DNA from: an uncultured Gammaproteobacteria bacterium
GTDB taxonomy: Bacteria; Pseudomonadota; Gammaproteobacteria; UBA9214
Assembly: GCA_963773065.1 (NCBI GenBank)
Contig: CAVYZN010000017.1
Coordinates: 32,001-96,000, forward strand
Direction of reading: 5' to 3'
DNA: 64,000 nucleotides
The notes beneath the pieces were generated by a model, which did no database searches, was not told the origin of the DNA, and was given only the letters and a program-made list of their open reading frames with translations. Shown piece by piece: positions 43,458 to 47,356 of this stretch. The position numbers and the translations under genes were made by a program. The number at the start of each line of letters is the position of its first letter. Positions within the stretch are counted from its first letter, which is position 1.

Positions 43458-43613
43458 AGCCGCCGGTGATATAGTGGTGCAGATGATCGGGGCGCCCAGG
43501 GAATTGGCGTACTCGGCGCGCTTGTATATCTGTTCCGGGGTCGGGGCGGTGACGTTCAGGTAGCCACCCTTGCGCTCACCCGTCTCGGCTTCGGCCTTGT
43601 GGATGGCCGACAT
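43458..43613 (-). pseudogene. cbbL: Internal fragment of a green-type (form IA) Rubisco large subunit
   Basis: [42 protein letters not shown], then after a frameshift HHYITGG. Matches form [27 protein letters not shown]...GAPIIMHDYxTGG. Confidence 0.85.
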
Positions 43614-43647
43614 GACCTAAAAATGAATCCGCGTTTGGCGCGGTTAC

Positions 43648-44001
43648 TTAAGGTTTAGCGTCGCCGGCGGCGTTCAACACCTGCTGCAATGCATCCAGCG
43701 TCGATCCCATCACAAGACCCGCGTGCACGTGGTACAGGCATAGCTGGCAACGCACCGGTGCGTGCAACGCGCTGCGGCCGACGGTTTCGAACAGGTGCCA
43801 ACCGAGTACCGGTTGATCGTTACGCAGGCTGTCAACACACAGCCAAAACCGATCCTCAAGGATCATCTCGAGACCCCTGTGCCCCGGCAACGCGATGCGC
43901 AACGGGCTGCCGCTGCGCGCGAGCGAAAGGCGCACGCGGTTATAGCACGCAGCCTCAATTGTCTTGGGAAGGGAATGGAGTACACCAGCGGGAAGCGGCA
44001 T
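43648..44001 (-). CDS. Hypothetical protein
   Basis: 117 aa, co-oriented downstream of cbbX; W.CVD...DQPVLGW..F...R.ALH.PV.C.L..YH.HA pattern. Confidence 0.7.
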   Translation of the reverse strand: MPLPAGVLHSLPKTIEAACYNRVRLSLARSGSPLRIALPGHRGLEMILEDRFWLCVDSLRNDQPVLGWHLFETVGRSALHAPVRCQLCLYHVHAGLVMGSTLDALQQVLNAAGDAKP

Positions 44002-44013
44002 CGGTCGCCTCCC

Positions 44014-44331
44014 TTACACCTCGAGCACGTCGTCGTCAGGGTCAATCGCGGCGAGGTCGAGGTCGTGGCGCGCGATCGCATCACACAGATTACCCAATGC
44101 ATCGTGCAACGCGGCAACGCTGTCGTCGGCATTTGCGGCATGGCGCTCGCGTAAACGCTCAAGCAGCGCAAGCAGGCGATCGGTGAGGCGTCCATCGGAG
44201 TCAATCGGGCCGGGCGCCCAACCCACCATGTCAGCAATATCGGCAGCGGCCTGAACCAGTGTCGGCTGCGCCGCCACGTCGGGTACCGCCAGGAAGCGCT
44301 CGACTGCTTGCAGCAATTCCCCTGGATTCAT
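44014..44331 (-). CDS. Hypothetical protein downstream of cbbX
   Basis: Acidic helical ORF tightly following cbbX. Confidence 0.6.
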   Translation of the reverse strand: MNPGELLQAVERFLAVPDVAAQPTLVQAAADIADMVGWAPGPIDSDGRLTDRLLALLERLRERHAANADDSVAALHDALGNLCDAIARHDLDLAAIDPDDDVLEV

Positions 44332-44352
44332 CGGCGGTGCCCGCGGGTGCAA

Positions 44353-45324
44353 CTAACCCGGCGATAAGCCATTGGCGCCCTCATCTCCATCGAGATCGAG
44401 CGCGCCCTCGCGGAACACACGCGAGGCACGGATATCCTCGGCCTCGAGTGTCATGAGGTCGATCCGGGTCAGTTGTCTACCGCGGCGAGCGAATAGGCGG
44501 TTGGCCTGACGAAGACGCGAGCGATCCAGCGCATTGCGTACCGAACGCGCGTTGGCAAAGTGTGGAAGCTTCATGCGCAGTGGGATGTATTCGGCGAACG
44601 CTTGCTCGGCCGTGGGGCTGAACCGGTAGTTCTGACTCTCCAGCATGAGCTTGGCGATCGCCAGCAACTCCTCGGGCTTGTAGTCGGGAAAATCCACATG
44701 ATGCGCGATGCGCGAGCGCATGCCGGGATTGCTCTGAAAAAAACGATCCATCTTGTCCTTATAACCGGCGAGTATCACGACCAAATCGTCGCGATTGTTT
44801 TCCATCACCTGCAACAGGATCTCGATGGATTCCTGACCATAGTCCCGTTCGTTTTCGGGTTTGTACAGGTAGTAGGCTTCGTCAATAAACAGCACTCCGC
44901 CCATCGCCTTCTTGATGACCTCCTTGGTCTTTGGCGCCGTGTGGCCGATGTACTGGCCGACCAGATCGTCGCGCGTGACGGTGACCAGATGGCCCTCCCG
45001 CACGTAACTCAGCCGTTTGAGAATCTCACCCATGCGCATCGCCACCGTGGTCTTGCCGGTGCCGGGATTTCCGGTGAAGCACATGTGCAGCGTCGGCGCC
45101 ATGGAGGTGAGATTCAGCTTGCGCCGCAGGCGGTCCACCAGCAGCAGCGCGGCGATCTCGCGGATGCGCGTCTTGACTGGCTTCAAGCCGATCAATTCGC
45201 GGTCTAGTTGATCAAGAACTTCCTGGACGTTGGAGGCGCGCAGTTCGGCCTCGAGGTCAATTGGCGTATCCAGGGTAGAGGAATCCGGGCTTGGATCGCC
45301 GGACGCTCGTTCGTTGTTCGGCAT
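44353..45324 (-). CDS. cbbX: Red-type Rubisco activase CbbX
   Basis: [48 protein letters not shown] and FANARS. Confidence 0.96.
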
Positions 45325-45378
45325 TGCTGGACTCCCCGTGAATCAAGAGCCGGCTGGGGCCCGATCCTGTTACGAGAG

Positions 45379-45411
45379 AAAACGCCGGGGGGCGTTCAAA
45401 CCGCCCCCCGG
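45379..45411 (-). terminator. Hairpin plus U-tract between cbbS and cbbX
   Basis: Minus strand: CCGGGGGGCGG-TTTGA-ACGCCCCCCGG-CGTTTT. Confidence 0.55.
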
Positions 45412-45424
45412 GGTGATAAGAGAC

Positions 45425-45859
45425 TTAATACCGCTCGCCTTCCGCCTTGTCCGTGGCATACGAATGCACGGTGTAACGGATGCTGCGTCCGTCCACTTCC
45501 TGACGCACCAGCCCGAAACCCGGCTCGTTCTTCGGTCGGTTGACGATGAACGACATGCGCGGGGTTTCCCAGCCGCGCGTGCTGTCGAATGCCGTTACGC
45601 GGATGTAATGACTCGGGAAGGTCTTGCGGCAGTTGTTGATCTCCATCAGTATCCCAGCGGGGTCCTTGAGATCGAACATCGGCATGCCGAACATCTCCCA
45701 ATAGGTGTTGCGCGGGTGCGGATCGTCGGTGTATTCGACGTTGACCGCCCAGCCGTTTTTCAACGCGTACTTGATCTGCGCGGTGATTTGCGCGTCAGTG
45801 AGATCAGGCAGGAACGAAAACTGACCCTGTGTGATCCGGTTGCCGTGATTGGTCATCAT
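45425..45859 (-). CDS. cbbS: Rubisco small subunit, red-type
   Basis: [30 protein letters not shown], and the red-type C-terminal hairpin extension. Confidence 0.96.
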
Positions 45860-45880
45860 GATGATGTCTCCTCGATGTCG

Positions 45881-47356
45881 TCAAACAGCGGCCGTGGCCG
45901 TCGGAACGAAGTCCGCCGTGTCGGTGGACTCGTAGTTGAAGGTGATGTCCTTCCACGTGTCGAGCGCGGCCTTGAGCGGTGAACAGGTCTTGGCGGCGTT
46001 CTCCAGGATCTGCGGACCTTCCTTCAGGTAATCGCGGCCTTCGTTGCGTGCCTGGATCATCGCTTCCAGCGCCACACGGTTCGCAACCGCGCCCGCCTGG
46101 ATACCCATCGGATGGCCGATGGTGCCGCCACCAAACTGCAACACCACGTCTTCGCCGAGGTAATGGATCAGTTGGTGCATCTGGCCGGCGTGAATACCGC
46201 CGGACGCCACGGGCATGACCTTATTGAGCGAGGCCCAATCCTGCTCGAAGAACATACCGGTTTCAAGGTTCTTCGGCGTGTGCGTCTCGCGTAGCGTGTC
46301 GTAGAAACCCTTGATCATGAGCGGGTCGCCCTCGAGCTTGCCGACCACGGTGCCGGCATGGATGTGGTCCACGCCCGCCATGCGCATCCACTTGCAGATC
46401 ACGCGGAAGTTCATGCCGTGGTTCTTCTGACGCGAGTAAGTCGAGTTACCGGCGCGGTGCAGGTGCAATATCATGTCGTTTTTGCGCGCCCACTTGGCCA
46501 TCGTCTGAATGGCCGTATAGCCGATCACGAGATCAATCATGACGACGACGGAGCCCAGGCTCTTCGCGAACTCGGCACGCTCGATCATTTCGTCCATCGT
46601 GGCGGCGGTGACGTTCAGGTAGTGACCCTTCACTTCGCCGGTGGCGGCCGAGGCCTTGTTGACGGCTTCCATGCAATACAGGAAGCGATCGCGCCAGTGC
46701 ATGAACGGCTGGCTGTTGATGTTCTCGTCGTCCTTCACGAAGTCGAGGCCGCCCTTCAGCGCCTCGTACACCACGCGACCGTAGTTGCGGCCGGAGAGGC
46801 CCAGCTTCGGCTTGGTAGTGGCGCCGAGCAACGGACGGCCAAACTTGTCGAGGCGCTCGCGCTCGACCACGATACCGGTGGCCGGGCCTTGGAAGGTCTT
46901 CAAGTACGCGACCGGCATGCGCATATCTTCGAGACGCAGCGCCTTGACGGCCTTGAACCCGAAGACGTTGCCGATGATCGAGGCGGTCAGGTTGGCGATC
47001 GAGCCGGGTTCGAACAGGTCGAGGTCGTATGCGATGTAGGCGAAATATTGCTGTTCCGTCTTGGTGCCGGTGCCGGTGTTCGGCACGGGTTCGCTCTTGT
47101 AAGCCTTGGCGCGATAGAGCTCGCAGGCGGTCAAACGGTCGGTCCAGACCACGGTCCAGGTCGCCGTGGATGACTCACCCGCGATGGCTGCGGCCGCTTC
47201 CTCGTGATCGACACCCGGTTGCGGCGTGACGCGAAACATCGCGATGACATCAGTGTCCTTGGGCTTGTAGTCGGCATCCCAATAGCCCATTTTCTTATAG
47301 GGCATAACGCCGGATTTGTAGCGCTCGGCGCCTTTGACTTCGAGTGATACGGTCAT
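45881..47356 (-). CDS. cbbL: Rubisco large subunit, form IC (red-type)
   Basis: [42 protein letters not shown] and [18 protein letters not shown]. Confidence 0.96.

Follow-up and report, generated by a model that had tools for sequence, protein, structure and literature searches.

A form IC Rubisco cassette in the slot of a form IA operon, beside a cbbL relic, in an uncultured gammaproteobacterium

Red- and green-type Rubiscos have been scattered across bacteria by gene transfer, and trees are the usual basis on which switches between them are recognised. Xenologous gene displacement in situ was reportedly described by Omelchenko et al. 2003 (Genome Biol 4:R55). For Rubisco itself, excerpts of two accounts relate that a proteobacterial rbcL-rbcS-cbbX cluster replaced the green-type enzyme of the red plastid lineage after horizontal transfer (PMC5437159, PMC9833100), and a portion of a third describes a new cbb cluster beside the remnants of an old one within the single species Thermus scotoductus (PMC13019369). 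Here we analysed 64,000 nt of an uncultured gammaproteobacterium (the window; positions 32,001 to 96,000 of contig CAVYZN010000017.1, assembly GCA_963773065.1), in which an intact red-type (form IC) cbbL-cbbS-cbbX operon stands next to a scrap of green-type (form IA) cbbL. The initial annotation had proposed that a horizontally acquired cbbLSX displaced the ancestral form IA operon at this site, and slot synteny, the native scrap, bridged junctions and the lack of an intact form IA gene in the assembly support that proposal. We consider it probable that a foreign red cassette entered the slot of a green-type operon that was alive at its arrival and left a 159-nt scrap behind. The in-place occupation holds, whereas displacement in the causal sense is not proven, as the form IA operon may have died first and its slot been refilled.

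The form IA slot and the cbbL relic

The source assembly (G000; 3.84 Mb, 33 contigs, completeness 90.9 %, contamination 6.3 %) was compared with four congeners, G001 to G004, of which G004 is the sister genome and is 88 % complete. L numbers denote loci on metagenome or genome contigs, X numbers denote sequencing runs, and coordinates are those of the window. On the minus strand the locus reads aprB-aprA, YkgJ, cbbL, cbbS, cbbX, two small open reading frames (ORFs), a hairpin with a T-run and the scrap, followed by the stop codon of a convergent Cys-rich gene (Table 1). In all four congeners a form IA cbbL-S-Q(-O) operon directly follows the same YkgJ gene. The arrangement in G002 and G003 is aprBA-YkgJ-cbbL(IA)-cbbS-cbbQ-cbbO, then a 157-aa gene and the Cys-rich gene, which lies 4.7–5.0 kb past codon 267 of cbbL, and G001 and G004 are alike on split contigs. 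The full order from aprA to the Cys-rich gene was found in five of the 27 metagenome loci examined (out of 52, the remainder being weak matches), and a sixth displayed it from YkgJ onward. The red cassette therefore lies between the genes that enclose the resident form IA operon in relatives.

A survey of the YkgJ slot covered loci of 30 out of the 40 family genomes with a YkgJ gene. Among the 29 family loci other than the window, YkgJ was followed by form IA cbbL in ten (one of them a fossil), by dxs in eight and by genes outside our query set in 11; none led to a red-type gene. The fossil belongs to another genus and is independent of the one described here: at L213 (G011:C111, 2744–3702) what remains of the same operon in the same slot is cbbL codons about 193–302, including a stop, a spliced piece of the 3' end and fragments of cbbQ and cbbO, whilst the intact Rubisco of G011 belongs to the other form IA clade. 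The only species-named homolog of the window's YkgJ protein among the best 120 matches was that of Thiogranum longum (71 %), which suggests to us that the host is related to Thiogranum. Within the 90.9 % complete source assembly, the search for an intact form IA or form II large subunit and for cbbQO proposed with the initial annotation found none; cbbQ, present in all four congeners, was not found, nor were any other Rubisco large subunit, cbbO, a second cbbS, the 157-aa gene or a bacterial microcompartment (BMC)/carboxysome shell gene.

The scrap retains 54 of 475 codons and matches RuBisCO_large (Pfam, E 1.3e-10), bearing out the claim of about 50 codons of form IA cbbL at this site; it is a pseudogene relic and not a full-length gene with an active site. 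Its distance from cbbX on the same strand (737 nt) agrees with the roughly 740 bp first given, but the gap is occupied by two ORFs, of 112 and 117 aa, which elsewhere accompany red cbb operons. In a nucleotide comparison that included 17 of 30 loci, the scrap matched intact form IA cbbL of G004 at 144 of 160 nt (90 %) and that of G001–G003 at 131–134, versus 71 % over 117 nt for the window's own red cbbL. These values rule out a local duplication of the red gene, as the initial annotation had also argued. A 26-row DNA tree placed the scrap as sister to the G004 gene (97/91), with green-type form IA and not with red-type sequences. The Cys-rich gene is likewise closest to G004 among the four congeners (90 % versus 76–78 %), and from this agreement we take the scrap to be the genome's own, vertically inherited form IA gene. 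The parent gene is linked to cbbQ-cbbO at the G002, G003 and G004 loci, and not to carboxysome genes. A chimeric green/red cbbL that might have served as a recombination anchor was also considered and rejected, given that red-type sequence begins at the very start of the intact gene, both of whose regions match red genes.

Decay of the scrap was evident at several sites. Both the histidine-to-glycine change and the frameshift reported at the outset are present in the window, as H231G and a 1-nt deletion at codon 259, along with E216S, M243I, K251N and D261H (G002 numbering); all five amino-acid changes fall at positions invariant in the four congeners. The frameshift is unlikely to be general, since the missing base is present in junction-spanning contigs of X2 (where the depth is 3.55 of 6.95), X4 and X6, and X4 and X6 have, instead, a stop at codon 262 (43471 A>T). 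Either a sequencing error or a private allele may account for it, because it is absent from these contigs and because dsrA, soxB and sat are each broken across frames in the same assembly. Those breaks (window 51279–52497; G000:C27 22982–24194; G000:C33 1085–2801; sat, dsrA, soxB) are likely assembly indel errors and not three pseudogenes. The multi-base changes E216S and H231G are probably shared among populations, as X1 and X14 each differ from the window at only two places. Relative to G004, the scrap displays a synonymous divergence (dS) of 0.26 and a nonsynonymous divergence (dN) of 0.061, versus a dN of 0.015–0.016 at a dS of 0.34–0.42 for intact form IA genes of the congeners. The drift of about 0.05 per site is close to half the dS between G000 and L143 (0.088) or L142 (0.156), which would make the inactivation about as old as the split from these loci, a rough estimate from 53 codons.

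It seems to us extremely improbable that the scrap is retained because it works as a small peptide or as an antisense RNA to the convergent Cys-rich gene. It possesses an in-frame ATG start and is common to several populations, and a single contig from an RNA run reaches into it from the 117-aa ORF; its frame, however, ends differently between populations (by the frameshift here and by a stop in X4 and X6, whereas X2 has the base restored), conserved residues have been lost, it sits behind a terminator-like hairpin, and it is a piece from the middle of the barrel domain. We regard the scrap as inert.

Breakpoints and junctions

By G002 coordinates, 811 nt comprising the promoter and codons 1–213 have been replaced by 3967 nt, and behind codon 267 a stretch of about 5.0 kb has been lost. 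L142 (93 % identical) and L143 (96 %) match the window up to 43467 and then run into the 157-aa gene, that is, into an undeleted junction, which also occurs as a loose end in X18. At the 43467 joint, the L142/L143 sequence and the reverse strand of form IA cbbL (compared with the G004 gene) share 7 nt exactly and 9 of 10 nt. Random joints reach at least 7 nt of microhomology with a probability of 5.5e-4, and the shared bases thus point to a microhomology-guided deletion as the likely cause of the ~5 kb 3' loss. Because contigs 93–96 % identical to the window keep the undeleted junction, the clean-up of form IA remains appears to be recent.

At the opposite end, the 41 nt that run from the YkgJ stop onward (47546–47586) may, tentatively, be a remnant of the native form IA promoter. 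None of 1000 shuffles scored as high against the G004 promoter and five of 1000 did so against that of G001; the signal was noticed after the fact, was significant in only two of ten promoters (the other eight were not) and was missed by a profile search. The stretch 43300–47800 showed neither an integrase or transposase nor terminal repeats or a target duplication, and the locus does not present itself as a mobile element or integrative island.

Contigs of eight out of 20 sequencing runs were examined at the locus, and only these eight were used as evidence; the locus was present at about 96–99.7 % identity in runs from soil, sediment and freshwater-sediment metagenomes. The joint between Cys-rich gene and scrap was bridged by X2 (43129–43511), X4 (43364–43633) and X6 (from its listed differences), that between scrap and cassette by X1 (43534–44182, 2 differences) and X14 (43495–43753, 2 differences), and that between YkgJ and promoter by X4 (from 47386) and X6 (47426–47637). 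A misassembly, which the initial annotation had named as a possible refutation, is ruled out by these bridges in independent runs from other studies. It is likewise very improbable, and largely refuted, that the scrap is a stray copy of an intact form IA gene in unassembled DNA or that the contig joins two organisms. Completeness and contamination leave some room for such readings, as do the indel breaks in the assembly and the fact that no single contig of another run covers the whole stretch; they are countered by the identity of the bridging contigs from other studies, by even depth across the locus in X1 and X4, and by a scrap that sits at the syntenic position and ends on microhomology.

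We propose that a likely foreign cbbL-cbbS-cbbX-orf-orf cassette (4.0 kb) would have replaced about 0.8 kb of the resident operon, its promoter and codons 1–213, leaving the rest without a promoter and behind a terminator. This remainder would have drifted, and about 5.0 kb of it would later have been removed by the microhomology-guided deletion. The cell now likely runs the Calvin cycle (prk is present) on form IC Rubisco and CbbX, probably under its own distant CbbR.

It is possible, though we suggest it tentatively and would not presume it, that the green-to-red swap is still segregating in one soil/sediment species complex, in which green, half-cleaned and fully swapped strains would coexist and recombine. 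Hints to this effect are the undeleted junctions of L142 and L143 (93–96 % identical), the joint presence in X18 of the undeleted junction and red pieces 97–100 % identical, compatible with either an intermediate or mixed strains, and alleles shared by deleted and undeleted haplotypes at 43433, 43440 and 43460. If true, this would constitute a natural near-isogenic experiment on selection of IA/CbbQO versus IC/CbbX.

Origin and regulation of the red cassette

In CbbL trees (one FastTree and two IQ-TREE runs, with eight rows removed and five added for the last IQ-TREE run), the window sequence fell in the red clade among those of Nitrosospira, Thiobacillus, Thiodictyon and Mesorhizobium, and a true cbbX follows it in the operon; its description as a clearly different, form IC gene was correct. 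The 117-aa ORF had no match in Pfam, NCBIfam or Atlas. The 112-aa ORF occurred in 11 of 401 genomes, G000 included, and lay directly behind cbbX in G007, G032, G166, G204, G205, G321 and G367, the last of which has the same five-gene order as the window cassette. Neither ORF belongs to a Pfam or NCBIfam family, and both are possible accessory factors of red Rubisco. At L220 (G367:C66, 340–5855), G367 also has cbbO together with no more than the final 18 codons of cbbQ. They face, head to head, a red cbbL without a cbbR next to it, an arrangement that may be a further scar of a green-to-red swap.

The incoming genes disagree with the species tree. Only six of 54 family genomes carry cbbX, which is lacking in G004, and a single clade of the family's red sequences was rejected (approximately unbiased (AU) test, p-AU 0.003). 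The other five red operons of the family have their own divergent cbbR and lie elsewhere than the slot where the slot is visible; four of these genomes also hold form IA genes or pieces. The red operon of G003 groups with the Thiodictyon cassette (100/98), and window and G003 red cbbL differ by a dS of 0.76–1.2, versus 0.20–0.62 for native genes compared with G003. This patchy distribution and divergence, and not codon usage, suggest that the cassette was likely acquired from outside the genus, from a donor lineage that appears to be unsampled. In the trees, a check called for by the initial annotation, the scrap fell with the genus's form IA genes and the family's red genes did not form one clade, and neither FastTree nor the two IQ-TREE runs singled out a donor; the codon-usage comparison it proposed gave no sign of transfer for cbbL, cbbS and cbbX. 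G+C in the window dips only from about 65 % to 59 %.

Several observations weigh against a foreign cassette having entered the slot of a living operon. About 9 % of the genome is missing from the assembly. Codon usage of cbbL, cbbS and cbbX is host-like (31st–63rd percentile), with only the two ORFs at the 2nd, and a grouping of the window and G003 red genes is not rejected by the AU test (p-AU 0.117). The nearest red cassette, that of G166 in another family, is 95 % identical in CbbL yet still at a dS of 0.59, the tree node there lacks resolution and no donor was found. Microhomology was not seen at the left edge of the scrap, nor were terminal repeats or a target duplication at the cassette ends. 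The slot, moreover, has often been emptied without refill (eight of 29 loci lead to dxs, and G011 has its own fossil). This last point bears on whether loss came first, with the form IA operon already dead or eroding and the red cassette restoring autotrophy, so that nothing was out-competed. The layout of the locus would then look no different. Loss before re-acquisition has been proposed for the Thermus scotoductus cbb clusters, in the part of that study drawn on here (PMC13019369), and the tentative promoter stub is without a native operator. Such an order is nonetheless unlikely in our view: form IA cbbL and cbbQ are kept in all four congeners, the small drift of the scrap (dN 0.06) implies a short interval, and L143 (96 % identical) still contains the downstream gene, as well as the insert found ahead of cbbO in G004.

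Codon usage and the AU result would also suit coexistence followed by relocation, whereby a red operon first resided at another site with its own cbbR and later moved into the form IA slot. G003 and G030 indeed keep form IA in the slot while their red operon, with cbbR, is located elsewhere, and G007 and G032 hold form IA pieces besides red genes. We nevertheless judge relocation quite unlikely, as the G003 red operon, affiliated with the Thiodictyon cassette, is too diverged for a vertical ortholog, no orphan second cbbR of at least 50 % identity occurs in G000 (the next LysR is 40 % identical) and the sister genome, 88 % complete, lacks cbbX. Arrival of a foreign cassette in a living form IA operon thus remains our preferred explanation.

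The cassette has an AT-rich putative operator of the CbbR type, but no divergent cbbR gene stands beside it and no cbbR stub was recognised there, in contrast to 63 of 86 red loci, where a divergent LysR gene is adjacent. The operator class precedes the native form IA gene in all four congeners and occurs in 13 of the 86 red loci; a test of its origin returned equal best scores for red and native promoters. As the native CbbR-like gene is kept (91 % identical to that of G001) and the cassette has no cbbR of its own, regulation in trans by this host LysR, 13 kb away, is plausible. Across red loci L052–L141, L219 and L223, operator class tends to track the type of the adjacent CbbR: eight of 12 ATAAG-class loci have a CbbR 59–62 % identical to the host's, and none of 27 ATAGA-class loci exceeds 58.2 %.

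CbbX is given as the activase of form IC and CbbQO as that of form IA(q) in a section of PMC5437159, which would mean that enzyme and activase were exchanged as a unit (CbbQO to CbbX). A section of PMC9833100 assigns form IC a higher specificity than proteobacterial form IA at similar turnover, and for a host without carboxysomes this higher CO2/O2 specificity would most likely have been the gain. Contigs from RNA runs of two studies match parts of the red cbbL and cbbS at 97–100 %, where DNA carry-over is possible, a weak sign that the cassette is expressed.

Beyond the locus, the assembly, that of a sulfur-oxidising bacterium, contains sat-aprBA, dsrA, soxB and prk, as well as a second, distant aprBA copy (G000:C16, 115625–117947; 47–55 % identical). 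At 41079–42791 the window has a YbaL-type K+/H+ antiporter where G001–G003 have a hydrogenase-related gene (labelled hupK-like) and hypB, which makes this a second swap next to that of the Rubisco operon. Next to dxs lies an 84-aa gene (40700–40954), a paralog of which (51–59 %) is located between cbbS and cbbQ in many of the family's form IA operons; one red locus has the paralog as well. By eye, a [NiFe]-hydrogenase cluster with maturation genes was recognised from translations at 9121–23379, and a region of lower G+C with transposase-like ORFs and a TIR-like ORF at 53844–57640.

Table 1. Features of the Rubisco locus and its surroundings, in window coordinates
Feature	Position	Strand	Basis
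Scrap of native form IA(q) cbbL, codons 214–267	43458..43616	-	144/160 nt to G004 form IA cbbL; sister in tree (97/91)
Microhomology at 3' deletion joint, 7 nt perfect, 9/10 nt	43458..43467		Common to form IA cbbL and DNA just behind the Cys-rich gene
Hairpin and T-run, likely terminator of red cassette, abutting the scrap	43619..43643	-	Sequence; RNAfold -11.4 kcal/mol for 43612–43655, without shuffle control
117-aa ORF	43648..44001	-	Homologs 37–62 % identical behind cbbX in many red operons
112-aa ORF	44014..44352	-	Also behind cbbX elsewhere
cbbX, red-type Rubisco activase, intact	44353..45324	-	TIGR02880 532 bits, above cut-off; ATPase motifs present
Red-type cbbS, intact	45425..45859	-	Sole cbbS found in assembly
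Red-type (form IC) cbbL, 491 aa, intact	45881..47356	-	PRK04208 783 bits; red clade in trees; active-site motifs present
AT-rich putative CbbR-type operator and promoter	47455..47503	-	Same box class as native form IA operator in 4/4 congeners
Tentative second scar, 41-nt stub like native form IA promoter region behind operator	47546..47586	-	Shuffle scores against G004 and G001
YkgJ/CxxCxxCC gene, left flank marker, downstream of aprBA	47584..48504	-	PF03692; 86–89 % identical in congeners
Small Cys-rich gene, right flank marker, start may be 43136	43118..43456	+	76–90 % identical in congeners
Native CbbR-like LysR regulator	33589..34503	-	Best NCBIfam match CbbR NF045990, below its cut-off; 91 % identical, same place in G001

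Comparison with known systems

The swap involves no new biochemistry. Its value lies in a switch that can be read at base level, through the old slot, the new cassette, the change from CbbQO to CbbX, the lost cbbR and the deletion joint. Because very close relatives have the older arrangement, the lineage is suited to testing if the Rubisco form is selected by CO2/O2 conditions and if a foreign cbb promoter can come under the control of a host CbbR.

A literature search, which covered few subscription journals and no supplements, yielded no account of a red operon occupying the slot of a green one beside a cbbL relic. Compared with form IC cbbR<>cbbLSX operons of Nitrosospira, Thiobacillus, Thiodictyon and Mesorhizobium, the window cassette is alike in gene order, in CbbL (80–93 % identity) and in the 117-aa ORF behind cbbX, and unlike them in having no adjacent cbbR and no linked prk or fba and in standing behind aprBA-YkgJ. 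The red plastid case, as set out in the excerpts cited at the outset, is ancient, leads from form IB to ID and is read from trees, whereas the window records a recent change from form IA(q) to IC in a free-living bacterium with physical scars. In the portion of the Thermus study referred to above, all Rubiscos are of a single Thermaceae lineage, what is left of the old cluster is a truncated prk, and the two clusters, old and new, are located in duplicated regions of 80 genes; in the window, one locus has changed both form and activase. With xenologous displacement in situ the locus shares a foreign functional equivalent at the position of the resident genes and conserved flanking synteny, and it differs in that a whole module of enzyme and activase was swapped across the red/green divide, leaving a relic with a readable breakpoint. 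In sum, in-place displacement with a relic is already a known type of event, of which the change from form IA to IC in place is a new and unusually legible example.

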